From: a virus
Lineage: Duplodnaviria; Heunggongvirae; Uroviricota; Caudoviricetes
DNA length: 64,000 bases
IMG/VR virus record: IMGVR_UViG_3300033146_000394
Coordinates: 1-64,000 of that record
Strand: one strand, 5' to 3'
This document shows positions 10,226 to 59,902 of the stretch, piece after piece; position 1 is the first letter of the stretch; each line of letters opens with the position of its first letter. Below the pieces are notes generated by a model. It made no database searches. It was given only the letters and a program-made list of their open reading frames with translations, and was not told where the DNA came from. Made by a program: the position numbers and the translations under genes.

Positions 10226-11068
10226 TTATTTTTTAAGAATTGTTTTTAATATTTTAGTTCTAGTAAGATTATTCATGTAAGCACCAGATAAATTATATCT
10301 TTTTAATAATGTATATAAATCTAAGGTATTAGGACATTTTATTAAAAATATTTCATACATCTCTCTTGTGAGTTCTTTATCTCTAAATTTATCAACACTA
10401 ATAATAAAATTCTTCTTCTTCAAAATATCATCATAAGTCGTATTATATAATATCTTTTTAAATAATAAAAAATATTTCTTCCACCAATGATTGTTTATTT
10501 TTATTTCAAATTCATCATATAACGAATTTATAGCATAAATATTTTGATTATTTTGATTATAATACTTTAATATCCTATAAAATGATTTAATATTACTTAT
10601 CAAATGTGATATTGAAGAAACATATAAAATAGTATATTCATTGTGTGATCCTTTTTTTAAAAATTTTAAATGATATGTTTTAGATAAAACATCACCCATA
10701 TAATTACCTTTATATTTTATATCTATATATGGCTTTAACCAATATAATGTAAATATTTGATGTAAATAAATAGATTTTTTTAATCCACTTTTATATATTT
10801 CGATTTCTTGTTTTTTTGCTAATGAATTAATTGCAGCATATTTATTATTTGGGAATAATTTTCTTAATATTTTATGACCACCACCAAATATATCACCCAT
10901 ATCACACCACATAATATGTGTTTCATTATTATTTAACTCACATGATTCATTTATACATATATGCTTATCACTAGTAATATCACTATCTAATACATCATTA
11001 TATATAAATGTACCATCAAGATATAAATTTGATTTACAATTTGGACATATTAAATCACTTTTTTTCAT
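10226..11068 (-). CDS. hypothetical protein with N-terminal CxxC zinc ribbon
   Basis: CPNCKS ... CINESC near the N-terminus; 280 aa. Confidence 0.45.
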   Translation of the reverse strand: MKKSDLICPNCKSNLYLDGTFIYNDVLDSDITSDKHICINESCELNNNETHIMWCDMGDIFGGGHKILRKLFPNNKYAAINSLAKKQEIEIYKSGLKKSIYLHQIFTLYWLKPYIDIKYKGNYMGDVLSKTYHLKFLKKGSHNEYTILYVSSISHLISNIKSFYRILKYYNQNNQNIYAINSLYDEFEIKINNHWWKKYFLLFKKILYNTTYDDILKKKNFIISVDKFRDKELTREMYEIFLIKCPNTLDLYTLLKRYNLSGAYMNNLTRTKILKTILKK

Positions 11069-11277
11069 AATATATCTCTGGTTAATGTGTTATATATTTT
11101 TTCCAAATCGGCATAATTATTTATTATTTTAATAAAATCTAATGATCCATCAACTTCATCATAATATGATAAAATTGTTTGTTTTCCCTCAAAGTGGATT
11201 TGTAATTCATATCTTTGGTCTAACCAAACACCATCACACATTATAAATTTATTTTGGTTACTTAAATCTATTATCAT
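11065..11277 (-). CDS. hypothetical protein
   Basis: 70-aa ORF overlapping its neighbours by 4 nt (operon-like). Confidence 0.35.
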   Translation of the reverse strand: MIIDLSNQNKFIMCDGVWLDQRYELQIHFEGKQTILSYYDEVDGSLDFIKIINNYADLEKIYNTLTRDIL

Positions 11278-11510
11278 TTTCTAAGTATTGTTTTAAGTTT
11301 TAATATTCGTAAATGTGTTAAATATAATGGATTAGATTTAGAGATATAAACTTTATCATAATTCATATTATAAACACTACCATCACTAAACACATAATCT
11401 ATATTATCATTAGTGTGTTTTACCATATAGCTATCAGTAGAATTTATATACATTAAATATAAATCTGATGTATTAAAAAAATAAGTAACATCTATATTAT
11501 TAAAATCCAT
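11274..11510 (-). CDS. hypothetical protein
   Basis: 78-aa ORF. Confidence 0.35.
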   Translation of the reverse strand: MDFNNIDVTYFFNTSDLYLMYINSTDSYMVKHTNDNIDYVFSDGSVYNMNYDKVYISKSNPLYLTHLRILKLKTILRK

Positions 11511-11540
11511 GTTTTTTATAGTAAAACAAAAAATATTTGT

Positions 11541-11717
11541 TTAAAAATTATTTATTGATTTGTATTTAATTAATAAAGTTTCATATGATGCTTCATCAAT
11601 ATTTTTTAATTTATTAAATAATTTTCCTATACCACTTTCACTCGCAGTAATTTTATTTGATTTAATTTTTTTAATTCTTGAATTAATCATAAATTCTAAT
11701 TTGTTTTGATTTTCCAT
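11541..11717 (-). CDS. small hypothetical protein (58 aa)
   Basis: Unlisted ORF MENQNKLEFMINSRIKKIKSNK... with TATCTTTGCATAAAT promoter-like motif 23 nt upstream. Confidence 0.35.
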   Translation of the reverse strand: MENQNKLEFMINSRIKKIKSNKITASESGIGKLFNKLKNIDEASYETLLIKYKSINNF

Positions 11718-13399: not shown

Positions 13400-13846
13400 A
13401 TGACAATACAAGATTTTTTAAAATTAACATATTTAACTACAAAAGAACGATATAAACTTTTAATATTCGACAAAAAAAATATATCTTATGATTTATTTTT
13501 GTCTAATGTTGAAAGTTTTTATATTGAAAGACCAAGAATAATATGTTTAGATGGGTTTTCTGTTAGTGTGCAAGGTGGAATCTATACATTATGTAGCCCA
13601 AGAAAACATACAAAAATATATGATAGTTTAGAAATAAGCAAACCATCAAGTAAAGACAAAATTTTTATAGATAATGAAGATATTCAATCTTATGTAAAAT
13701 TACAAGATATTCAAGATATGATTAATCGACACAATGGAATAAATATATCTAAAACTTTTAAAAATTTTTCATCTATAAACTATTATAAATATGTAAACAA
13801 TATTAGGAAATCTAAATTAAATTGTATATTACAAAAAAATAAATAA
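13400..13846 (+). CDS. hypothetical protein
   Basis: 148-aa ORF. Confidence 0.4.
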   Translation: MTIQDFLKLTYLTTKERYKLLIFDKKNISYDLFLSNVESFYIERPRIICLDGFSVSVQGGIYTLCSPRKHTKIYDSLEISKPSSKDKIFIDNEDIQSYVKLQDIQDMINRHNGINISKTFKNFSSINYYKYVNNIRKSKLNCILQKNK

Positions 13847-21510: not shown

Positions 21511-22896
21511 TTAACTACCAGACCCAGACCCAGACCCATTTGAACTTGACCCAGACCCAGACCCAGACCCAGACCCAGACCCACCACTATCAATAGTAAT
21601 CCAATCTTGTGGTATTGATGCATAATCATTTAAATTTGTATTACTATTAAAAGCATAATCACCATAACATATACTAAATTCTGACCATATCTCTTGTATT
21701 GTTCCATGTAAATCACACCCATCAAATATATGTTTTAAATCTTTATATCTATGATATGAATTAGGATCCAAATCTGGGAGAATATCTAATGGTGATTGTG
21801 GACACGAAATCAATGAACTACAACCACTAAAAACACCCATTAATGCCCAATTATCTGAATTAGTTCTTATCTGTGGTATTGATGTTAATGATGTACAATC
21901 TTTAAAACATTCAGTTAAAGTTAATGTATTAGTTGAAAATAAATTTTCTGGGAATGATACTATATTTGAACCACTGAATGATTGTGTAAAATATTTAACA
22001 GTTGATGGGAATAAATTATTTGGGAATGTAGTATCTATAAATATTGTATTATTAAAAACACTACCAGCATCTTCACCAACATAATTATTAAATATTGTTG
22101 GTATTTCTGCTAATGTGGTATTTTTAAATAAACCATTAATATTAAATGTTGATGAAATTCCTCTTAAAAAATTAGAATCGACTGTTTCAATATTACAACC
22201 AGCAAATATACCTTGAACAATATCTACACTACAATCTGCAAAGAAATCTGCTGGTAAATGTTTTATTCCAGAATTTGCAAATAAATCTCTTACAACTCTA
22301 ATCCCACTATTTTTGAAAAAATTTGGTGGAACTGTTTCTAATGATTTACACCCAGAAAAAACATAACTTGGATAAAAATCACTACCTATATTTGGATTTG
22401 AGAAAAAATCATCAGGTATTGTTATTAAATCTTTACAATCTGCAAAAACAGATGACCATTGCCCACCATTAGTATATATTCTTATATTGTGAAATAGTCC
22501 TTCAGGGATTTCTACAATACCACTATTTTTAAACATATTTGAAACATTATACATCTGTGTGGTATTTCTGAATAGATTTCCTGGGATTACTTTTAATGAT
22601 GTACAATCTTGAAACATACGTCTTACATCTGATAAATTTGGAGTATCATTAAATAAATCTACTGGAACATATTCAATTGATGAACAACCCATAAAAATAC
22701 CAGAAGTCCAGGTCAAATTTGTTTGATTTTTAAATAATCCATCGGGGATTTTTTTTAATGACGAACAACCATTAAACAAATCCAACCCCCATTGGATATT
22801 ATTGTTATAAAATAACCTTGATGGAATTTCTTCTAATAATGTACAATTTAAAAATGTTCTATAAAATTCTTGTGCTTGAGTATTATAATCAAACAT
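21511..22896 (-). CDS. BspA-type leucine-rich-repeat protein with C-terminal (GS)n tail
   Basis: About 24-aa repeats F..C.SL..IP..LF.N... ending in GSGSGS. The frame stays open a further ~95 codons upstream (to about 23183) without a start codon. Confidence 0.6.
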   Translation of the reverse strand: MFDYNTQAQEFYRTFLNCTLLEEIPSRLFYNNNIQWGLDLFNGCSSLKKIPDGLFKNQTNLTWTSGIFMGCSSIEYVPVDLFNDTPNLSDVRRMFQDCTSLKVIPGNLFRNTTQMYNVSNMFKNSGIVEIPEGLFHNIRIYTNGGQWSSVFADCKDLITIPDDFFSNPNIGSDFYPSYVFSGCKSLETVPPNFFKNSGIRVVRDLFANSGIKHLPADFFADCSVDIVQGIFAGCNIETVDSNFLRGISSTFNINGLFKNTTLAEIPTIFNNYVGEDAGSVFNNTIFIDTTFPNNLFPSTVKYFTQSFSGSNIVSFPENLFSTNTLTLTECFKDCTSLTSIPQIRTNSDNWALMGVFSGCSSLISCPQSPLDILPDLDPNSYHRYKDLKHIFDGCDLHGTIQEIWSEFSICYGDYAFNSNTNLNDYASIPQDWITIDSGGSGSGSGSGSGSSSNGSGSGSGS

Positions 22897-23924: not shown

Positions 23925-24719
23925 ATGGATGAAAAAAAAGATTTTTTTGATATAGATGATGAATTTAATAAGAAAAATATTAAACACGTAGAAAATATTG
24001 AAGAAGAAGTTGAATTTGAATTTGAAAACGAAGAACAACAAAAAATATCTGATAAAGAAGAAATAGAAATATCAGAAAATTATAAACGAACAAAAGATGA
24101 TATTACAGATTCTGTTGATACACTAAAAGGAAATATAAATAGTATGTTAGATACAATTAAATCACCAGATGATATGTTTTTGCAACCAGAATTATTACCA
24201 GGAATTGATATTGATATTGAAACATATGATTATGATAGAGAAATGGATTTAATTAAAGTTGATAGTAAAGAAACGTTAGAAAGTTTAGCAAATTTATATT
24301 TAGATGTAAATAAAATGAAAAATAAAAATATCCACACTATTATTAAAAACGATTCAAAAGCTCTTTCTGATTTAAATTTTTCAATATCTATGGCTAAAAG
24401 AGGACTGATTATGTGTATGCAACAATTAGATTTAGGTGTAAATGATCCAGACATGTTTCAAAGTGTTAGTACATTTCAAAAAGAAATTAGAGACACAATA
24501 AAAATGGTATATGATATTCAAAGAAAAATGAAAGATTTTTATAAAGAATTAAAAAGTGAATTACCTGAAATAAATGCTGGGGAAGAAGATATATTAGAAG
24601 AACAACAAGAAGAAGATCACTATACTATAATTGGAGACCCAAAATTATTAAATCAAGTGTTTGATGAATTAAAAAAAGACCCAACATTATTAAATAATAC
24701 AAAAGACAAAAAAAATTAA
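23925..24719 (+). CDS. acidic protein (DFFDIDDEF N-terminus)
   Basis: 264 aa, D/E-rich; paralogous N-terminus with 28237..28446. Confidence 0.45.
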   Translation: MDEKKDFFDIDDEFNKKNIKHVENIEEEVEFEFENEEQQKISDKEEIEISENYKRTKDDITDSVDTLKGNINSMLDTIKSPDDMFLQPELLPGIDIDIETYDYDREMDLIKVDSKETLESLANLYLDVNKMKNKNIHTIIKNDSKALSDLNFSISMAKRGLIMCMQQLDLGVNDPDMFQSVSTFQKEIRDTIKMVYDIQRKMKDFYKELKSELPEINAGEEDILEEQQEEDHYTIIGDPKLLNQVFDELKKDPTLLNNTKDKKN

Positions 24720-24931
24720 ATATTAAAATCTAATATAGTTTTTTGGTTTTTTGTATAAAACATATCTGAATCTAATCCATGAAATGTACCATCTTCACAT
24801 AATATAACATAACCAATATTATTTTTAAATTTTTTATTATTTATTGAAGAGTATATTTTATATTTTTTATTTATAATAAGTAAGGTGTCATTATTTTCAA
24901 TGTAATCTTTTTTTGAATATACTTCTTCCAT
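24716..24931 (-). CDS. small GLDSD-motif protein ending in DFNI
   Basis: 71 aa; paralog of 28466..28699 (VILCEDGTFHGLDSDMFY vs VVLVEYGDLVGLDSDYFEEI). Confidence 0.4.
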   Translation of the reverse strand: MEEVYSKKDYIENNDTLLIINKKYKIYSSINNKKFKNNIGYVILCEDGTFHGLDSDMFYTKNQKTILDFNI

Positions 24932-24979
24932 TTTTTAACTTTTTTATTTTTATATATATATAAAAAAAACACAAAAATC

Positions 24980-26479
24980 ATGAGAATACAAAAATTCAAC
25001 AAATTTAAAGATATAAAAAACAATACTATTAATAAAATAGATGATATAAATGAAGGTATTTTATCTGATTTATGGGATAATTTTACTGAAACATTTAAAA
25101 ATTTAAAAGCAAAATTTGGTATTCATACTTGGGAACAACAAATTAAAATTTTAGCATCAAATGGTGAATTACCTGGTGGTGTATCAATATCATATCCAGG
25201 ACATAGATTATCAGATGATATTTTAAATGGAACAGAAGATATAATGGTAAAAGAAGATGCTGTACCATTAGAACATCCAGATAACAACATAGAGAATATT
25301 AATATTGGTAGGTTAGAAAAAGTAATAAAAGCAGCATATAAATTTAAATTAAAAACAGGAAAATTAACAACCGTTTTTTTATGGGGTGCACCAGGTATTG
25401 GAAAGACTGATATAGTAGACCAAATAGCAGATGAATTAGATATATTAATGATTGTATTTCATTTATCTTTAATTGATTCAACTGACTTTAAAGGATTACC
25501 TTTTATCGTAGAAGAAAAAATAAAAGATGATAATGGTAAAACAAAAATAAGAAAAAGGTCATCTAATGCATTACCACTAATATTCCCAACTAGTAATGGT
25601 GATAATGGGAAAGGTGGAATATTATTTTTAGATGAAATGAATTTAGCAGAATCATTTGTATTGAAAGCAGCAATGCCACTTGCATTATCTGGAAAATTTG
25701 ATGGTTTTGATTTACCAAGTAAATGGATTATTGTTTCTGCTGGTAATAGAAAACCTGATGTACCTGATACCGACTTAGAAGAAATAAAAGGAGCATTAGG
25801 TAATAGATTCATGCATATCAATCTTGTAACAACTGTTAAAGATTGGACAAGTTGGGCAAAAAATAAACCTTATGTAGATAAAAATTTATTATCTTTTTTA
25901 AATTCTGATATTGGTAAAGAGTGGTTTCATAAATTAGAGGGTTCTGATAAACAATCATCAGCTTGGCCATCACCAAGATCTTGGACACAAGCAACATATG
26001 CTATTTGGATAGAAGGTGATGAAACATTTAATATGTCAGAAGAAGACCAACGATTTTACTATGGTTCATTTGTTGGTAGAGAAGCAGCAGTTGAATATTT
26101 TAATTATATAGAATTATTAAAATATATGAGTGAAAAAGAAATGGAAGAAGTTTATAAAACTGGAAATGCTCCAAAATTACCAACTAGGACTGATGCAAAA
26201 TTTGCAGTGATGTCTGCAATAGTATATAAAAAAACTGGTAAAAAAATGACACCAACAGAATTTAAAAATTTATTACATTATATTAAAACTAAATTAGATG
26301 ATAATTTTGAGATAATTACACCAATGTTAAAGATGTTAAAAATGGCACATATTGATAAAAATAAACATGTTTATTATAAGTCCGATGAACCATATAAAGC
26401 ATTATATGATGATTTTATTAAAAATTGGTTTGGATTATATAATGACATAAAAAAGGAAGATGATAAAGGAAACATTTAA
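24980..26479 (+). CDS. MoxR/CbbQ-type AAA+ ATPase
   Basis: Walker A LWGAPGIGKTD and Walker B ILFLDEMN; AAA_5-like. Confidence 0.7.
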   Translation: MRIQKFNKFKDIKNNTINKIDDINEGILSDLWDNFTETFKNLKAKFGIHTWEQQIKILASNGELPGGVSISYPGHRLSDDILNGTEDIMVKEDAVPLEHPDNNIENINIGRLEKVIKAAYKFKLKTGKLTTVFLWGAPGIGKTDIVDQIADELDILMIVFHLSLIDSTDFKGLPFIVEEKIKDDNGKTKIRKRSSNALPLIFPTSNGDNGKGGILFLDEMNLAESFVLKAAMPLALSGKFDGFDLPSKWIIVSAGNRKPDVPDTDLEEIKGALGNRFMHINLVTTVKDWTSWAKNKPYVDKNLLSFLNSDIGKEWFHKLEGSDKQSSAWPSPRSWTQATYAIWIEGDETFNMSEEDQRFYYGSFVGREAAVEYFNYIELLKYMSEKEMEEVYKTGNAPKLPTRTDAKFAVMSAIVYKKTGKKMTPTEFKNLLHYIKTKLDDNFEIITPMLKMLKMAHIDKNKHVYYKSDEPYKALYDDFIKNWFGLYNDIKKEDDKGNI

Positions 26480-26498
26480 AAAAAATTAATATAAATAT

Positions 26499-28196
26499 AT
26501 GAAAAAATATGAAAATTTTTTAATTACATTAAATGAAAATTGGATTTCAGATAAAGTAGATAGAGGGGCATTACAAAAAGTAAGATTAGCACAAGCTCAA
26601 ATCACAACAAAGTTTCCATTTTTTACTAATCTTCTTTTTAAATTAACAATTAAAGAAACAAATGATCCTAAATGTAAAACTATGTGGACAGATGGAAAAA
26701 GTATTGGTTATAATAAAGATTTTGTAAAAAGGTTGGGTGATACTAGAAAAGTTGCTTGGGTGATTATTCATGAAATAATGCATAATGTGTCGTTACACTT
26801 TTTAAGAATGAATGGTAGAGACCCAGAGTTGTGGAATTATGCTGCTGATTATGCTATTAATGTATTGATTGATGATTTAGCAAAAGCAAACCCAGCAAAC
26901 TTAGTAACACCAGATAAAGTTTTATTGGAGGAAATATATAGAGATATGAGTGCTGAACAAATTTATAATAAAATATATGGTGATATAGAAAAGAGAAGAA
27001 AAGAACTTGAAGAATATTTAAAAGGTAAAAGTGATGGACAAGACCAAAAAAAGAAAGATGATAATTTTGATAATGGTTTTAGTGATGGACAAGAACAACA
27101 TAAAAATGACCAAGATAAAAACGAAAATAGATCAGATGGTAAAAATAAACCAAAAAACAAATCTGATGAATATAATGATGGTTATGATAGTGGATATAAT
27201 AGTGATTTAGATGATTCTCCTGAAAATAATAGACCACAACAAGATGATAGGAATATTGGTGATAAATCTGATGAATATGGTGAAGGGTTCGATGATGGAT
27301 ATAATGGAAATAGTAATAAACAAAATGGTTCTGATGGTGAAGGTGAATCTGGTGGTTCTATTAAAGATATGATAGATGATTTTATAAAAAAACACCCAAA
27401 TGGATTAGGGAGTGATATAAAAAAACCAGGTGAAGTTAAAGGAGAAAATATATATAATGATGATGATGGAGTTGATTCTAATGATAAAAATATATCAGAA
27501 GAAGAGTTAGCTAAACAATGGGTAGATCACGTCAAAAATGCTGCTAAGTCATATGGTAGTATGACACCCGGACTTGATAGAATAATTAAAAAAATAGGTG
27601 AACCAAAAGTGAATTGGAAGAACGAAATACAAAAATTTGTTAATGGTATATATAAGAAACGTTCTTTGGGATATTTTAAAAATAGATCAATACATAGAGG
27701 TGATTATTTACCAGGACCAAAAAGACTAGATAGTACATCATTTAAAGAAGTAATTATTGCAATAGATACTTCTGCATCAATTGGGGATAAAACATTAGCA
27801 AAATTTGCATCAGAATTAAAAGGATTATTTAAAAAATATAAAATCAAAAAAATCCACGTTATTTGGTGTGATTCTCAAATAAAAAGTGTACAAGAATTTA
27901 AAAACGTTGATGATTCATTTAATTTAGATTATTTAAAACCAAAAGGTGGTGGTGGAACTTCTTTTGTTCCCCCATTTGAATGGGTTGAAAAAAATCTAAT
28001 AAGTAGAGGAAAAACCCCAGCATTTATGTTATATTTTACTGATGCTGAAGGTTCAGCACCAAATGTTGGTGAATATAGTTTAGCAAAATATAATAAAAGA
28101 GTTTTGTGGGTAATAACGGATACATTACCAGATTCTAAATATGTTAAAGATTTATCATTTGGAAAAAAATTATTTATTGATAAAATAATAGATTAA
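26499..28196 (+). CDS. VWA-domain protein with N-terminal HExxH metallopeptidase-like domain and acidic DG-rich linker
   Basis: WVIIHEIMHNV (HExxH) and IIAIDTSASIGDK (MIDAS DxSxS). Typical partner of MoxR-type ATPases. Confidence 0.65.
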   Translation: MKKYENFLITLNENWISDKVDRGALQKVRLAQAQITTKFPFFTNLLFKLTIKETNDPKCKTMWTDGKSIGYNKDFVKRLGDTRKVAWVIIHEIMHNVSLHFLRMNGRDPELWNYAADYAINVLIDDLAKANPANLVTPDKVLLEEIYRDMSAEQIYNKIYGDIEKRRKELEEYLKGKSDGQDQKKKDDNFDNGFSDGQEQHKNDQDKNENRSDGKNKPKNKSDEYNDGYDSGYNSDLDDSPENNRPQQDDRNIGDKSDEYGEGFDDGYNGNSNKQNGSDGEGESGGSIKDMIDDFIKKHPNGLGSDIKKPGEVKGENIYNDDDGVDSNDKNISEEELAKQWVDHVKNAAKSYGSMTPGLDRIIKKIGEPKVNWKNEIQKFVNGIYKKRSLGYFKNRSIHRGDYLPGPKRLDSTSFKEVIIAIDTSASIGDKTLAKFASELKGLFKKYKIKKIHVIWCDSQIKSVQEFKNVDDSFNLDYLKPKGGGGTSFVPPFEWVEKNLISRGKTPAFMLYFTDAEGSAPNVGEYSLAKYNKRVLWVITDTLPDSKYVKDLSFGKKLFIDKIID

Positions 28197-28236
28197 TAAA
28201 TTAATATATAAACATATAAAAAAAAAAAATAAAAAC

Positions 28237-28446
28237 ATGAAAATCAAAAAATGGGAAATGTTTAAAGAAACATTAAAAAACCAAGAAATAAAAGAAAATA
28301 CAAAAAATTCCGAAATAACAGATAATGATGATGAATTAATTATTGATAACTCAAAAAATATAAAAACAGAAGAAGAATTTTTTGATTTTTTTAATATTGA
28401 TGATGAATTAGCTGAAGAGGTTCAAAAAGAAATTCAAGAAGATTAA
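28237..28446 (+). CDS. small acidic protein (EEFFDFFNIDDEL)
   Basis: 69 aa; motif paralogous to the N-terminus of 23925..24719. Confidence 0.35.
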   Translation: MKIKKWEMFKETLKNQEIKENTKNSEITDNDDELIIDNSKNIKTEEEFFDFFNIDDELAEEVQKEIQED

Positions 28447-28465
28447 AAAGGGGATATTCCCTTTT

Positions 28466-28699
28466 TTAAATTTCTTCAAAATAATCAGAATCAAGTCCAA
28501 CTAAATCACCATATTCTACTAATACAACATAACATTTTTTTGAAAACATTTTATCTGTTTCAAATTCAGAATATACATCATATATCTTACCTTCTATTAC
28601 GTGAATATTAAATGTATCTTCCGTAGTTTTATTATTATCAACAGTTTGCTTTGCTCTAACTTTTTTCATGGTTTCTACGTTTTTTTGCTTATATAACAT
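28466..28699 (-). CDS. small GLDSD-motif protein
   Basis: 77 aa; paralog of 24716..24931. Confidence 0.4.
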   Translation of the reverse strand: MLYKQKNVETMKKVRAKQTVDNNKTTEDTFNIHVIEGKIYDVYSEFETDKMFSKKCYVVLVEYGDLVGLDSDYFEEI

Positions 28700-30383
28700 C
28701 TGATTCTTTTCTTATATCTTTACTGAACATAATTCTATTATTCATTATTATCTCACGTCTTTTCGATTGTGTATCAGTTTCTTTATCACTCCAATCCATT
28801 CTTAAATATGGCCAATTTATACCAGATAAATCTTGGATTATTTTATTTTTAAAAATGTTTATAAATTTTGTATCTTTAAATTTTACACTATATCCATTAA
28901 TATTTGATATAGTACCTATTCCTTTATGACCACCAGCTACGGTGATTGCATTTTCATATATATCTATTTTATAATCAAACATAGAAACAAAATTATCTAA
29001 TAATGTTTCGTGATATTTCCCTAAATTTCCTATTATTTGACCATTTTTTAATTTTGGTAGATAATCTTCATCATAATTATCTAAATTATGATATGCTGCT
29101 AATTGTAAAGTATTACCATATTGTAACATAATCCACAATATTGGTGGTTTTGCTCTAAATATTAAATTGTTTTGTGAATCCATATCAATTATCCCCTTAA
29201 TACCTATTTTAGTACCATCTAATGAAATATCTTTAATATCTATATAATCAACACCATTATCATATGTAATTTCACCTAACACTTCTATACTATCCCCCAC
29301 ACAATTTTTTAATGTATTAAAATGTTTATTCTCTTTAATAAAATATGATATTGTTTGTATCTTTTCTACAATTCGTTTTTCATCTTCAATATTATATATA
29401 TTTGAACTATCTATTTCAAATATAGCTCTACCCCTAATAGCATTAGCCCACGTTCCTGGTGGTATATATACAATATTACCAATTATTTGATAACCATTTA
29501 ATGTAAACCCATAACTAGTTTTAAATTTCTCTATAAATTCATCTTGTGAATGTATAAGAAATTTTTTATCACTACCTCTGGTTCGTATAAGCATTTCTCC
29601 TAATCTCCATTTAGCATCTTCCAAATAATCTCTTTGAAAAGATTTATATAGTGGGGTGTTTACTTTAATTATATGATTAATATATTCATCTGTATTCATA
29701 CCAACATTATTTGCCATTTTTTTAATTTTCCAGATGTTTAAGTTGTTTGCTGGATAAAATAATTTAAATAATCTATAAATATTATACACGGATGGGGCAT
29801 AATCATTAATATTTGCTACTACTTCTATAAATGTTTTGTGATCTGAACGTTTTATTGTTTGATTGAAAGCTGCTGCGAAATCTAATTTAGATTTAAAGTT
29901 ATTAAAATCAAAATTAAGAATAATTGATGGTTTGATTTTATAATGTTCATATCTTGCAGAATCAACCATATCTATAACATTTTGTATCATAGAATCAATA
30001 GGTAATCCTAACTGATCACAAATCCCCTCATATGCTGATGTTGTTTCTGTTTTTACTGAATTATTATTTTTTTCAGCTTCTTTAAATTTTTCTAAATCAG
30101 TATTATGGTGGTCTATATATATATCAATCCCCTCTGTATTTTCTGCAAAATCTAGTGCAATATTAATATATTTTAAATCTAATTCAGTTGTTGTCCAACC
30201 TTCTTGATAATTAACTATACCATAACCATGAATTTTAAACCCTTTTTCAATTAAATATTTTTTCATAACAATAGCTGAATAAATCCCATCTAAATCATCA
30301 TGAAAATAAATCATGACACTTTTGCCAATTTTCCCTTTATTTTTCCAATATATCTCACTATTTGGTATGCGTGGTGCTGACAT
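28689..30383 (-). CDS. DHH-family phosphoesterase with large C-terminal extension
   Basis: VMIYFHDDLDGIYSAIV (motif I/II) and DIYIDHHNTD (DHH). Promoter-like TATCTTTGCAAAAAT lies 32 nt upstream. Confidence 0.55.
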   Translation of the reverse strand: MSAPRIPNSEIYWKNKGKIGKSVMIYFHDDLDGIYSAIVMKKYLIEKGFKIHGYGIVNYQEGWTTTELDLKYINIALDFAENTEGIDIYIDHHNTDLEKFKEAEKNNNSVKTETTSAYEGICDQLGLPIDSMIQNVIDMVDSARYEHYKIKPSIILNFDFNNFKSKLDFAAAFNQTIKRSDHKTFIEVVANINDYAPSVYNIYRLFKLFYPANNLNIWKIKKMANNVGMNTDEYINHIIKVNTPLYKSFQRDYLEDAKWRLGEMLIRTRGSDKKFLIHSQDEFIEKFKTSYGFTLNGYQIIGNIVYIPPGTWANAIRGRAIFEIDSSNIYNIEDEKRIVEKIQTISYFIKENKHFNTLKNCVGDSIEVLGEITYDNGVDYIDIKDISLDGTKIGIKGIIDMDSQNNLIFRAKPPILWIMLQYGNTLQLAAYHNLDNYDEDYLPKLKNGQIIGNLGKYHETLLDNFVSMFDYKIDIYENAITVAGGHKGIGTISNINGYSVKFKDTKFINIFKNKIIQDLSGINWPYLRMDWSDKETDTQSKRREIIMNNRIMFSKDIRKESDVI

Positions 30384-37399: not shown

Positions 37400-38365
37400 A
37401 TGAGTGAAAATGCAAACGATTTCCTATTTGGGGGAGCAGTAAAAGAAGATGATTCATTATCAGTATTTGATAAAAAATCAACATCATCAGATGGTATATA
37501 TAGACCATCATTAAAAGATGCAAAAGTTAAAAAAGATGGTTATAGAGCAACTTTAAGATTTTTAACTAATGTGTTAGAAAATGGACATAAAGGACCAAGT
37601 GCAATTAAAAAACACGTCCATTATATTGACATGAAAAATAATCCTAATTTGTCTGGATATTATGATTGTGGTAAGAATTTTGAAAAAGATTGCCCATTAT
37701 GTACAGAATATTGGAAATTATTCAACTCTAAAAATGCAATTGATAATGAAAAAGCAAAAACATTAAGTAGAATAACTAAATGGTATTCTTATGTTATGAT
37801 TCTTGAAGATGACCAAAATCCAGAATTAGTAGGAAAAGTATTAGCTTTCTCTTATGGTGCACAAATTAAAGATAAAATAGTATCAGAAAAAAACGGTGAA
37901 TTAACAGGAGAATCTGTTGATGTATTTGATACAGTAAAAGGTAAAGATTTCAAATTAATTATCAAAGAAAAAGGTGGTTATGCAAACTATGAATCATCAT
38001 CATTCTTAAAAGAATCACCAATAAAAATATATAACGAATCTAAAAAATCATTTAAAACTGTTCCAATTATGAAAGATGGTATGATTGGTATTGATGGTGA
38101 TGCAAAACAAACTAAGAAAATTAGAAATAAATTACTTGAGATATTTACTAAAAAAGATATTGATATTAAAGATTATGCACCAGTTAAATGGGATGATGAA
38201 ATCATTGGTAAAGTAAATGATATTTTAACTTCATTAAGTGGGGATATGACATATAAAGCGACACAACAATCAAAAACTACTAATGATGCAACAACTAAAA
38301 CAGATGTAGAAGAATTTGATAGTTCTTCTGAATCAGAAGATGATTTTTTTGAATTTGATGATTAA
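37400..38365 (+). CDS. T4 gp32-like single-stranded DNA-binding protein
   Basis: [10 protein letters not shown] resembles T4 GQAVIRFLP. The Zn motif H..C..C..C (HVHYID...[16 protein letters not shown]) is present. [38 protein letters not shown] resembles [49 protein letters not shown] resembles GFSNYDESKFL. Acidic C-terminal tail. Confidence 0.75.
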   Translation: [321 protein letters not shown]

Positions 38366-39319: not shown

Positions 39320-39991
39320 ATGAGATATATTAAAAATATAAATGAAATAAATACTGAATTTGATGATCATAAAGTTGGACAAAATGTTAATTTAAGTAAT
39401 ATGCAACCAACAATTGATTTACCAACAGATTATTACATAACACCAGATGAAGATGGTGATGATGAAGATGAATATTATAGTACGTCTGCTGGTAAGTCTG
39501 GTTTATATTATGGTGTAGAACCTGGACACAATAAAGGATTAAAAAAGAGAAACACAGCTCCACAAAAAATGTCAGCAGAAAAATTAAATGTGGTTATACC
39601 ATACAATTCATATATATTTGAAAATATTGGAGATATAAATAATAAGATATTATCTAATATAAAATATAAAATACAAAATACAAAAGAGGGTATAGAAGAT
39701 GAATTAAATTTAATCACCAATTTAGAAAAAACAATTATTAAAAAATATATTCTGATTTATTGTTCATATACATCACCAAAAATAAATAGTGAAATTAAAT
39801 ATGAAGATTTCATAAAAAACTATAATATAGGTAAAGCAAATCTAAGTTTTATTGATCCATATGATAGTTTATTAGAATCATATATCACAATATATGATGA
39901 ATATATATCTTGGAGAAGAGGTGATTACAATATGTTATATATAACTGAATACGAATATAAGAGATTAAAAATAAATGAATTTAATATATGA
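39320..39991 (+). CDS. hypothetical protein ending in EFNI
   Basis: 223 aa; 3' end GAATTTAATATATGA. Confidence 0.45.
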   Translation: MRYIKNINEINTEFDDHKVGQNVNLSNMQPTIDLPTDYYITPDEDGDDEDEYYSTSAGKSGLYYGVEPGHNKGLKKRNTAPQKMSAEKLNVVIPYNSYIFENIGDINNKILSNIKYKIQNTKEGIEDELNLITNLEKTIIKKYILIYCSYTSPKINSEIKYEDFIKNYNIGKANLSFIDPYDSLLESYITIYDEYISWRRGDYNMLYITEYEYKRLKINEFNI

Positions 39992-40422
39992 TTTTATATA
40001 ACAAATTTTTAGAAAATATAATTAGTAAAAATGATATAAATATTGATGATTTTAAACAATATATTGCTAATGGAATAGATTTAAATACATTAAGGTATCA
40101 TAATAATGAAACACTATTATTTAAATCAGTTAAAAACAATTCATACAATGAAACAAAATATTTATTAGAAAATGGATTAAATCCAGATATAAGAGATATT
40201 CATAATTCAACTATTATTTATTATGCTGCAATATATGGTTATATTGATATAATAAATTTATTGATAGAATATAATGCTGATGTCATTAAAATTAAATTAG
40301 GGTGGGATAAAAAATTATTTGATGTTGTAGACTCAAATATTCTTTTACAATTTAAACAAAAATACCCTAAAACATATAAAAAATATGAAGAATTAATAAA
40401 AATTTCAGAATTTAATATTTAA
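39988..40422 (+). CDS. ankyrin-repeat protein ending in EFNI
   Basis: NPDIRDIHNSTIIYYAAIYGYIDIINLLIEYNADV ankyrin consensus; 3' end GAATTTAATATTTAA. Confidence 0.55.
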   Translation: MILYNKFLENIISKNDINIDDFKQYIANGIDLNTLRYHNNETLLFKSVKNNSYNETKYLLENGLNPDIRDIHNSTIIYYAAIYGYIDIINLLIEYNADVIKIKLGWDKKLFDVVDSNILLQFKQKYPKTYKKYEELIKISEFNI

Positions 40423-54830: not shown

Positions 54831-54875
54831 AAAAAAGCATCTGATTTTTATATATTAAAATCAGATGCTTTTTTC
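54831..54875. terminator. bidirectional hairpin GCATCTGATTT/AAATCAGATGC with A-run and T-run
   Basis: Seen directly. The right arm is built from the DFNI-encoding 3' end of the minus-strand gene 54848..55324. Confidence 0.55.
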
Positions 54876-55324
54876 ATAACCAAGAAAAAATCAAATTCAT
54901 TTGGATATTTATTGATAACTTTTTCTTTATCTTTTTTATTAGAAAGATTTTCAAAAATTGAATGATAATTATCAGTAAACCCAAACCAATTTATTTTGTT
55001 ATTTAATAATACCTCAAATATATCATTATTTGTATTCATATTTGTATTATTTATATCATAATGTAACCACATATCATTTGCTGTTATATTTTCAAAAATA
55101 TAATCTATGTTCTTTTTTAATATATCAGCAGAAAATTTATTGAAGTTAGTAATATCATATGGATCATCATCAATATGGTATTTATAATCTGAATTAGATA
55201 ACCAATTCAAATATAATATAATAATATCCCTCGGTGGTTTATTATTTGTATTTAAAACCATTAAAGAATTTTCAAAATAAAAAAAACCAACATTTTTATT
55301 AAAATTAATATATTTAGTTATCAT
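54848..55324 (-). CDS. hypothetical protein ending in DFNI
   Basis: 158 aa; C-terminal DFNI-stop. Confidence 0.45.
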   Translation of the reverse strand: MITKYINFNKNVGFFYFENSLMVLNTNNKPPRDIIILYLNWLSNSDYKYHIDDDPYDITNFNKFSADILKKNIDYIFENITANDMWLHYDINNTNMNTNNDIFEVLLNNKINWFGFTDNYHSIFENLSNKKDKEKVINKYPNEFDFFLVMKKASDFNI

Positions 55325-56801: not shown

Positions 56802-57218
56802 TTAAATATTAAAATCTGATACTGCATTATACATATTGAATATATCATTGAGGTCATTTATCATAGAAAAATCCTTAATATCTATACATGGTATAATTTC
56901 AAAACTTTTCGCTATTGGGTTAAGTATTATTTTCATAGAATATTGACCATTAATATAAAGTATTTTCCAACCAATTGCGTACTCTGATAATAATTCAGAT
57001 TTTAAATTAATATCTAAGTCTATATATTTTGATATAATATGTAATGCATCACCTATTTCTTTTGGTAAATAATCATATTCTAAATTTAATCCTTCTGGGT
57101 ATTCTTTTCTAAAATCAACAATAATTGTTGGTGGTTTATTAAAACCATTAATAATCCTCTGTTCACGTTGTTGCTTCACAAATTGTTTATTTTCAAATAA
57201 TTTAAAATATTTTATCAT
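56802..57218 (-). CDS. hypothetical protein ending in DFNI
   Basis: 138 aa; N-terminus MIKYFKLFENK (similar to 9761..10201); C-terminal DFNI-stop. Confidence 0.45.
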   Translation of the reverse strand: MIKYFKLFENKQFVKQQREQRIINGFNKPPTIIVDFRKEYPEGLNLEYDYLPKEIGDALHIISKYIDLDINLKSELLSEYAIGWKILYINGQYSMKIILNPIAKSFEIIPCIDIKDFSMINDLNDIFNMYNAVSDFNI

Positions 57219-58885: not shown

Positions 58886-59902
58886 ATGAAATATTTAATA
58901 ACAAAATTTAAAAATTATTATAATCATATTAATGAAAGTTATAATGTAGAAAATATAAATTATGATGAATCTATTATAGATTCATTTTATAAAGATAATT
59001 TTGATTTTTTTAAAGAACATGGTTTAAGTAGTGTTATTGATAATTTTAAATGGGGTTATATATATCAAAGTGTTGATGAATTATCATTAACAAATGATTG
59101 GAAAAAGGATTATATTGAAAATAGAGATAATGATGATTTAATTGATTATATACAAGAATATTATAATGAATATTATAATGAATATAAATCAAAATACATT
59201 GAAAATATAAATAAATTATTTATTGAAAGTTTTAGTGGGGGGCAAGATGATGAATTTGATGAAAAATTTGATTTTGATAAAACATATAAAGATTATAATT
59301 ATTTTGATAAAGTTGAAAAAATATTTAATTATGATGAAAGTTATTTAATTGATATTGTTGAGAAATCCCATTTTTATTCTTGGGTTTGGGATAAAAGATA
59401 TGATAGCGTGTTCGATTATATTAATGAAATATATATGGATCCAGATAATATAGAAGATAAAAGCTCAGATAATTATACCGAAGCAGTTTCTACATATTTC
59501 ACTGTAATTGAAAATTATATTGATGAAAAATATTTAAATAAAATATGGATTTCTAATATTAGTGCAGAAGTGGAAAAAATATATTATTTCGATAATAATA
59601 AATGGTCAGATGATTTTATTGATAATTTAATTGATTATGATTTAAATAATATTATATATATATTTAATGATATATCAAATATCACGTATTTTAATACATA
59701 TGAGCACCAAAAAGATTTAATAATAAGTATGTTTAGATATGAATCAGATATTAATATTACTGAATCAGATAATTATGATAAAGATTATTATTTACCAGAT
59801 ATATTATTTAACATAAATGAAAAATATAATTTAGTTGACGAAATTAAAAAAGAGTATAATACTTATATTATAAAAATCACAACAAACGAATTTAATATTT
59901 AA
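58886..59902 (+). CDS. acidic hypothetical protein ending in EFNI
   Basis: 338 aa, D/E/Y-rich; 3' end GAATTTAATATTTAA. Confidence 0.45.
   Translation: MKYLITKFKNYYNHINESYNVENINYDESIIDSFYKDNFDFFKEHGLSSVIDNFKWGYIYQSVDELSLTNDWKKDYIENRDNDDLIDYIQEYYNEYYNEYKSKYIENINKLFIESFSGGQDDEFDEKFDFDKTYKDYNYFDKVEKIFNYDESYLIDIVEKSHFYSWVWDKRYDSVFDYINEIYMDPDNIEDKSSDNYTEAVSTYFTVIENYIDEKYLNKIWISNISAEVEKIYYFDNNKWSDDFIDNLIDYDLNNIIYIFNDISNITYFNTYEHQKDLIISMFRYESDINITESDNYDKDYYLPDILFNINEKYNLVDEIKKEYNTYIIKITTNEFNI

Follow-up and report, generated by a model that had tools for sequence, protein, structure and literature searches.

A 64,000-nucleotide (nt) stretch of viral DNA (IMG/VR record IMGVR_UViG_3300033146_000394, positions 1 to 64,000; the whole stretch is referred to as the window) carries, between positions 23925 and 28699, a gene for an AAA+ ATPase followed by a gene for a protein with a metallopeptidase and a VWA domain. 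A gene for an acidic protein and a gene for a small protein with the sequence GLDSD are found on each side of this pair. The original prediction for the locus described these flanks as a duplicated two-gene module. How did the arrangement arise, and do the flanking genes belong to the pair? The explanation that best accounts for the results, and which we consider probable, is that an ATPase/VWA pair of a known kind lies between two old GLDSD paralogs that were split by a reshuffling of the genes, and that the acidic genes are unrelated to each other except for a short motif.

The window, from a source contig of 84.8 kb, has a GC (guanine plus cytosine) content of ∼22% throughout, and 82 of its open reading frames (ORFs) were taken into the counts made across ORFs. 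A gp32-like single-stranded DNA-binding protein (SSB), a family B DNA polymerase, a topoisomerase II, and a helicase are encoded, and the window is part of a huge, T4-related phage genome with this low GC content. The closest phages in GenBank are the uncultured huge phages LR756500 and LR756501 (462-735 kb), which belong to the huge phages described by Al-Shayeb et al. 2020. Loci of relatives are labeled L001-L093, where L001 is LR756500, and individual protein family members are labeled P0110, P0115, P0122, and P0128. Among these relatives, the genes around the region occur in widely varying order. All six of the predicted ORFs are present and carry the motifs DFF(D/N)IDDE(F/L) and GLDSD(M/Y)F that had been reported for them. 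The features of the locus are as follows.

23925-24719, plus strand: 264-residue acidic protein, predicted to be helical, beginning MDEKKDFFDIDDEF...; conserved core gene of the huge-phage clade
23940-23966, plus strand: N-terminal motif DFFDIDDEF, residues 6-14 of the 264-residue protein
24716-24931, minus strand: GLDSD-B, 71 residues, predicted SH3-like, subtype B, with a C-terminal extension that ends in DFNI (codons 24719-24730), ...HGLDSDMFYTKNQKTILDFNI
24932-24979: 48-nt intergenic region between the divergent GLDSD-B and AAA+ genes, A/T palindromic, with inverted repeats I9 and I16; presumed shared divergent promoter region
24980-26479, plus strand: MoxR-like AAA+ ATPase of 499 residues, N4 gp24 type (PHROG 1297, E = 1.6e-53)
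26499-28196, plus strand: 565-residue protein with an HExxH metallopeptidase domain, an acidic linker, and a VWA domain, of the N4 gp25 type (PHROG 1314, E = 7e-76)
28237-28446, plus strand: 69-residue acidic orphan with DFFNIDDEL (nt 28384-28410), ...EEFFDFFNIDDELAEE...
28445-28466: bidirectional terminator-like hairpin AAAAAGGGGATATTCCCTTTTT between the convergent 69-residue and GLDSD-A genes, detected on both strands in a terminator scan
28466-28699, minus strand: GLDSD-A, 77-residue ORF, predicted SH3-like, subtype A, no tail, ...VGLDSDYFEEI; directly downstream of the DHH-like gene
28689-30383, minus strand: 564-residue DHH-like protein with a weak Pfam DHH match; backbone gene at the far edge of the block

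Two GLDSD paralogs and their gene order

The GLDSD-A and GLDSD-B proteins are 41% identical over 41 residues (E = 2e-7), and an all-against-all BLAST comparison of the ORFs revealed no other paralog pair in the window. When 5.8 billion proteins were searched through a word index, only three further members of the family were identified; 24 matches at E ≤ 0.001, mostly 62-107 residues in length, were obtained when 1.84 billion cluster representatives were searched exhaustively with a profile. Proteins of subtype A stop immediately past G(L/F)DS(D/E)YF, and those of subtype B continue for a further 10-15 residues and end in (F/Y)(N/K/D)(I/L). Judged from these sequences, the GLDSD proteins make up a small phage family that has not been described before and is divided into two old subtypes, A and B. 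The DFNI tail that had been noticed on one of the two window proteins is confirmed as the end of GLDSD-B. The true start of GLDSD-A is probably M11 (nt 28669), as indicated by the homologs, which would give a protein of 67 residues. The gene for GLDSD-B overlaps the convergent gene for the 264-residue protein by 4 nt, has a codon log-likelihood ratio of 0.33, and corresponds by orthology to the gene that comes second in the tandem pairs of L002 and L004.

The structures of the GLDSD proteins were predicted for the proteins alone, and the predicted fold is SH3-like. The model contains a small barrel of β-strands with a short helical turn that precedes the last strand, and it is superposable on SH3 domains. 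The GLDSDYF stretch (residues 58-64) covers this helical turn. Seven members of the family were searched against Pfam and no family was assigned; one member matched DUF7177 below the threshold (15.3 bits versus 27; E = 0.024). In contrast to the curated SH3-like domains, the GLDSD proteins are stand-alone, phage-encoded proteins of 62-80 residues that have no Pfam match at the sequence level.

The A and B genes are found in tandem in L002/L003, L004, and L088/L089, and they are fused into a single 147-residue protein (P0128) in L090. The GLDSD genes of L002, L004, and L090 are divergent from the AAA+ gene, and a homolog of window ORF 9761-10201 is located on their other side. The tandem A and B genes of L088/L089 adjoin a dUTPase gene and not an AAA+ gene. 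A single GLDSD copy is present in L092 among other tail-tagged proteins, not beside a homolog of the window AAA+ protein, and GLDSD genes are absent from ∼80 AAA+/VWA loci that are more distant. The order in the window, B(−), AAA+(+), VWA(+), 69-residue(+), A(−), is the odd one out among the orders found in the relatives, and it is therefore most simply derived by a local rearrangement that moved either the A gene or the operon. The rearrangement would have placed the operon for the AAA+, VWA, and 69-residue proteins between B and A, and the flanks would appear to be repeated because of this placement. The GLDSD duplication itself is, by sequence comparison, old and normally tandem; it took place before the separation of phages with ATPases of only 44-51% identity. 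It is very likely that the arrangement reflects a rearrangement of old paralogs and not a duplicated module.

A segmental duplication was rejected after repeat finding and local alignment of the two flanks. Comparison at the DNA level detected only a 50-nt stretch with 72% identity within the GLDSD coding regions and a nonsignificant 26-nt match at the acidic motif, and no direct or inverted DNA repeats other than these two matches bound the block. The duplication that had been proposed for the two-gene module thus holds for its GLDSD half, as paralogs, and fails for its acidic half, where the similarity is confined to nine residues.

The surroundings of the block differ between the window and its relatives. 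Homologs of the genes for the 264-residue protein and the DHH-like protein are separated only by a fragment of a terminase large subunit gene in L085/L086 and by a block of five genes in the window. The DHH-like protein is 51% identical to a 763-residue protein of L085 that is encoded two genes from the homolog of the 264-residue protein. The synteny in L002, L004, and L090 places GLDSD genes beside the AAA+ gene, as in the window; the flanks themselves are not duplicated, and the gene for the 264-residue protein belongs to the backbone. The proposal of an inserted cassette is upheld to the extent that the AAA+/VWA genes and the GLDSD genes occur together in different contexts (the window compared with L002, L004, and L090), and it is not upheld for a recent insertion bounded by repeats.

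The acidic genes and their shared motif

The 264-residue and 69-residue proteins have only the nine-residue motif in common, with seven of the nine positions identical. Among the 9-mers of the window, the pair DFFDIDDEF/DFFNIDDEL matches best, with a score of 40 of a possible 51 (the runner-up has 32), and a match of this quality arose in 2 of 1000 shuffles that preserved composition; both copies had been seen before the motif pattern was chosen. No wider protein similarity between the two was detected beyond the motif. The DNA similarity at the motif extends over 26 nt and was reached in 15 of 300 shuffles. Because the protein similarity goes no further and the DNA match is not significant, the shared motif is taken from the sequences to be a nonrandom short linear motif and not evidence of gene duplication. 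The claim that both acidic proteins are copies of one another does not survive: one is an orphan and the other has at least 188 homologs.

The motif is retained as DFF(D/N)I(D/N)DEF in the closest homologs of the 264-residue protein and appears as FFxDIL in more distant ones. It is replaced by the AT-hook-like sequence KRGRPKK in the most distant members of the family (P0110, P0115, and P0122; L087 2104-2883). It is doubtful whether the motif is a common docking motif and not a relic or a coincidence. By analogy with other MoxR-VWA systems, it is possibly an acidic ligand for the metal-ion site of the neighboring VWA domain, and the peptides KKDFFDIDDEFNK and EEFFDFFNIDDELAE are proposed as candidate partners of that domain.

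Two other window proteins have C-terminal sequences similar in character to DFFxIDDE. The gp32-like SSB (37400-38365, plus strand; PHROG 224) has the acidic-aromatic tail SESEDDFFEFDD, and a part of the DNA polymerase (45375-47129, plus strand) ends in DIIYDDFWD. The N-terminal sequence EGFFxN(I/L)W of the AAA+ protein was also considered as a relative of the acidic motif and was set aside, as the resemblance is too weak to use.

The 264-residue protein has at least 188 homologs with identities of 45-73% on contigs of up to 614 kb, and a protein of the 735-kb phage LR756501 shares 45% identity with it. The predicted structure is all-helical with a disordered acidic N-terminus. A weak match to PHROG 735 (terminase small subunit) was obtained with 7 of 29 family members over the C-terminal half (best E = 2.6e-4). 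In L085/L086 the homolog adjoins, and is convergent with, a terminase large subunit fragment (PHROG 5989, E = 2e-25). A remote homolog in L001 (hhalign probability of 87%) directly follows the VWA gene and lies two genes before a terminase large subunit fragment. The gene is not beside a terminase large subunit gene in the window, L087, or L093, and no such gene was found in the window. We lean toward an assignment of the 264-residue protein as a small terminase subunit. It would resemble the T4 gp16-type small terminase in being helical and in having terminase large subunit fragments adjacent or near in L085 and L001; it differs from T4 gp16 in its greater length and in its disordered acidic N-terminus. 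The AT-hook-like N-terminus of the distant members would fit a DNA-binding small terminase. One copy of the gene is present in the window and in each locus examined, and it has no AAA+/VWA neighbor in L085, L087, and L093. Whether or not it encodes a small terminase, it is a backbone gene unrelated to the 69-residue gene apart from the motif.

The terminase large subunit genes of the relatives appear to be fragmented (L001 9961-11663; L085 8914-9996, 10836-11744, and 14957-15856; L093 4020-5606). These fragments are surrounded by homing-endonuclease-like genes (DUF723, PHROG 3339).

No homolog of the 69-residue protein was found among the 5.8 billion proteins. Its gene has an in-frame codon signal of 0.61, compared with −0.19 for the best other frame, and the start regions of this gene and the AAA+ gene are 71% identical at the DNA level over 62 nt. 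The terminator scan that located the hairpin at its 3′ end gave 6 sites in the region, where 1.4 are expected. The 69-residue ORF is probably a real, lineage-specific orphan gene. Two other explanations were considered. A noncoding artifact is contradicted by the strong codon signal and by the terminator at the end of the ORF, and a relic of the 5′ end of the gene for the 264-residue protein is not supported, since the similarity of protein and DNA is found only in the motif. A scan for sigma-70 promoters gave 55 sites versus 67 expected and is uninformative at 22% GC.

The ATPase/VWA pair and its neighbors

The predicted AAA+ and VWA-metallopeptidase pair is present with its Walker, HExxH, and VWA metal-ion motifs. 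The Walker A (GAPGIGKT, 25385-25408) and Walker B (LFLDE, 25622-25636) motifs of the ATPase are intact. The VWA protein matches Pfam DUF2201_N at residues 27-216 (117.2 bits; cutoff 23.2) and DUF2201 at residues 418-546 (73.2 bits; cutoff 26.4), so the order of the domains is peptidase followed by VWA. The HEIMH sequence is found at residues 91-95 (26769-26783) and an intact metal-ion-dependent adhesion site, DTSAS, at residues 423-427 (27765-27779). The two domains are connected by an acidic linker of ∼190 residues (residues ∼156-344; 26964-27530) that is rich in G, N, D, and K and of low complexity. A repeated KSDEY(N/G)(D/E)G(Y/F)D.GYN unit appears in this linker at 27159-27200 and 27264-27305, and the counterpart of the linker in L001 is a long (GQ)n run.

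The ATPase and VWA genes are on the same strand with a gap of 19 nt. The pairing is also found in L001, L002, L004, L006, and Klebsiella phage Muenster. The Muenster annotation describes the two proteins as homologous to N4 YP_950502 and YP_950503. The ATPase is 44-51% identical to its homologs in L002 and L004. In the phage collection searched, homologs of the VWA protein are present in 492 phage records. A MoxR and metallopeptidase-vWA pair was previously described in jumbo phages (Iyer et al. 2021, PMC7824862), and a role in virion assembly with peptidolytic processing was proposed for it there, with the MoxR-vWA pair of Acidianus two-tailed virus serving as the analogy. The pair is thus already known, and nothing in it is new by itself. 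Its most likely setting would be virion assembly or maturation.

The window pair has the same two genes in the same order as N4 gp24/gp25 and the jumbo group 2.2 pair (PHROG 1297/1314), with the HExxH domain N-terminal to the VWA domain and with intact motifs. It differs from the N4 gp24/gp25-type pair in the acidic low-complexity linker of the VWA protein and in the accompanying genes, which are two small SH3-like genes and an orphan acidic gene. An AAA+ ATPase gene adjoins the gene for a VWA partner also in RavA-ViaA, CbbQ-CbbO, and p618/p892 of Acidianus two-tailed virus. The likeness to these systems is at the level of domains; their VWA partners have no fused metallopeptidase, unlike the window protein. 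From the families involved, the ATPase ring would supply a remodeling force, the VWA domain would dock a client by binding an acidic residue of the client at its metal-ion site, and the HExxH domain would then cleave the client. This model of chaperone-like remodeling with docking at the VWA metal-ion site is borrowed from cellular MoxR-VWA systems.

A different kind of VWA pair may be present in L092. A 202-residue protein (9968-10576, minus strand) with DMSGS (DxSxS) and a weak VWA match is followed by a 321-residue gene of unknown family (10585-11550, minus strand); the only GLDSD-family gene on this contig is ∼2 kb away.

Several results weigh against the overall explanation of a known pair between separated GLDSD paralogs, flanked by a probable terminase subunit. 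The direction of the rearrangement was read from a small number of short contigs, and no contig of a relative in the gene-order comparison reaches past the VWA gene. The ATPase is placed in the MoxR group from borderline Pfam scores (AAA_5, 22.1 with a cutoff of 22; AAA, 23.1 with a cutoff of 21.2) and from the literature classification of homologs, and no relative of the ATPase was found in NCBIfam or the Protein Data Bank (PDB). The alignment of the 264-residue family with T4 gp16 using hhalign was not significant (probability of 0.4%). Fold searches with the 264-residue protein identified only uncharacterized phage proteins (E values down to 2e-7), and named terminase small subunits appeared only at E values of ∼0.2-0.6 in a viral fold library. 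The Tenacibaculum jumbo phages pT24 and PTm1 carry the fold of the 264-residue protein. The NCBIfam search as a whole gave nothing relevant, PDB sequence searches with the AAA+, VWA, and 264-residue proteins gave no relevant match, and no match was obtained when viral contigs were scanned with the AAA+ protein alone.

Within this explanation, the SH3-like A/B pair may work with the AAA+/VWA machine, which we consider less likely than not. Such a coupling is not required, because two lineages lack the adjacency of the GLDSD and AAA+ genes.

The adjacency could also be without functional meaning. The GLDSD genes and the 69-residue gene would then be independent accessory genes, for example for host takeover or anti-defense, in an inherited order, and the motif would be a relic or a coincidence of composition. 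This is consistent with the fluid gene order around the region, with the occurrence of GLDSD genes without an AAA+ gene, and with the linkage of the GLDSD genes to the homolog of ORF 9761-10201, which is as tight as that to the AAA+ gene (L002, L004, L088, and L090). The choice of the motif pattern after both copies were seen points in the same direction. The rarity of the motif match in the 1000 shuffles (two occurrences) argues against it, as do the adjacency to the AAA+ gene, which survived the change of context in the window, and the A-B fusion, which shows selection on the GLDSD pair itself. We find a lack of functional meaning rather doubtful.

Another reading, which goes back to the original prediction of a possible chaperone or maturation system with its substrates, is a functional unit with its clients, in which the A and B proteins are adaptors or substrates of the AAA+/VWA-peptidase and DFFxIDDE on the 264-residue and 69-residue proteins is a docking site, for example as a ligand of the VWA metal ion. 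CbbO and Midasin are examples of MoxR-type partners in which the metal-ion site of the VWA domain binds an acidic residue of the client. GLDSD genes adjoin the AAA+ gene in four lineages (the window, L002, L004, and L090) with ATPases that have diverged to 44-51% identity, and this adjacency holds although the wider context of the window differs from that of the others. The fusion of A and B suggests that the two act together. The motif match is nonrandom, its two carriers flank the pair, and it is conserved in orthologs of the 264-residue protein, whose homolog again abuts the VWA gene in the distant L001. Set against these points are the tandem A and B genes beside a dUTPase gene in L088/L089, the single copy in L092 away from an AAA+ homolog, the ∼80 more distant AAA+/VWA loci without a GLDSD gene, and the location of the gene for the 264-residue protein away from the pair in L085, L087, and L093. 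Taken together, a unit of this kind appears unlikely.

A mobile cassette could also have been inserted recently, its flanks being repeats that arose at insertion by duplication or that mediate recombination, as in the repeated regulatory cassettes of T4-type phages. This reading would fit the position of the five-gene block between genes that are near neighbors in L085/L086 and the direct orientation of the GLDSD genes at its two ends, but it is very improbable given that the flank copies are only 41% identical as proteins and ∼72% identical over 50 nt as DNA, that they represent distinct subtypes already present in relatives, that no other direct or inverted repeats bound the block, and that no integrase or transposase is found in it by Pfam and PHROG matches.

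Terminal peptides and the meaning of the locus

The tail of GLDSD-B is one of a set. Ten of the 82 ORFs end in (F/Y)(N/K)(I/L), where 0.36 are expected, and of the nine occurrences of (D/E)FNI in the ORF set, eight stand at the very end of the protein. The ORFs that end in (D/E)FNI, about 10% of those in the window and one of them in the form DIFNI, are listed below.

1555-2481, minus strand
9761-10201, minus strand
24716-24931, minus strand (GLDSD-B)
39320-39991, plus strand
39988-40422, plus strand
44039-44437, plus strand
54848-55324, minus strand
56802-57218, minus strand
58886-59902, plus strand

The C-terminal tags KYNL, KFNL, KYNI, EYDI, and KFKI are found in relatives. From its sequence pattern, the tail of aromatic residue, any residue, aliphatic residue, and free carboxylate has the appearance of a peptide tag at the C-terminus. 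The idea that it merely results from a promoter element of the next gene was rejected from the ORF maps. Five of the nine tagged genes precede a convergent gene and the relatives retain the peptide pattern with other codons (for example, KYNL, KFKI, and EYDI), and the tag is therefore read as a peptide signal. The tagged proteins are not a single paralog family, since no mutual similarity was found in the all-against-all BLAST comparison. A second C-terminal motif, K(L/I)(K/N)(T/C)IL.(K/Q).., is found on five ORFs (2537-2920, plus; 4252-4422, minus; 10226-11068, minus; 11274-11510, minus; and 13400-13846, plus), and GLDSD-B has KTIL just before its DFNI tail.

A leader is shared at the other terminus. 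Eleven ORFs match the pattern MK..(F/Y)..F, which was defined after the fact, compared with 0.75 expected. The leader has the form MK(Y)(I/L)..(F/Y)..F.E, and its carriers include the AAA+ (24980), VWA (26499), and 69-residue (28237) proteins, together with the ORFs starting at 44039 and 58886 and the minus-strand ORFs 56802-57218 and 9761-10201. Examples from the window are MKYIKIYEEFEF, MIKYFKLFENKQ, and MKKYENFLITLNE, the last of which is from the VWA protein. The L001 proteins encoded at 8254 and 9039 both start with MKYIQTYKDFLLEA. Of the ten ORFs with the C-terminal tag, six carry the leader as well. The leader resembles the capsid targeting sequence of T4, MKTYQEFIAEA of IPII and IPIII; this is a resemblance only, and the T4 type is defined by a prohead-protease site at its end and by packaging and cleavage shown in experiments. 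The concept of the T4 capsid targeting sequence is described in PMC3012670. If the leaders were sorting signals, the ATPase-peptidase pair might, by way of speculation, be targeted to the prohead, and such targeting, if real, would fit the proposed role of the pair in assembly.

A 461-residue leucine-rich-repeat-type protein encoded at 21511-22896 (minus strand) has a (GS)n tail, a match to PHROG 9915 (E = 1.4e-49), and a weak match to DUF285.

For the duplicated module as it was originally claimed, the result is negative, and what is found in its place are old paralogs separated by rearrangement. The ATPase/VWA pair has only a predicted role in the 492 phage records, and this lineage offers partner candidates that can be tested, namely two small proteins of a peptide-binding type and a probable terminase subunit with a conserved acidic motif. 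It is quite improbable, yet conceivable from the sequences, that the A and B proteins and the DFFxIDDE motif are recognition elements of the AAA+/peptidase-VWA machine, maybe jointly with the (D/E)FNI C-terminal tag that GLDSD-B has in common with about 10% of the proteins of the phage. If this were true, they would be the first concrete client or adaptor candidates for a widespread, uncharacterized system of the N4 gp24/gp25 type and would point to a tag-based system of protein sorting or processing in huge phages. The (D/E)FNI tag and the T4-like leader may be a more valuable lead than the flanks.

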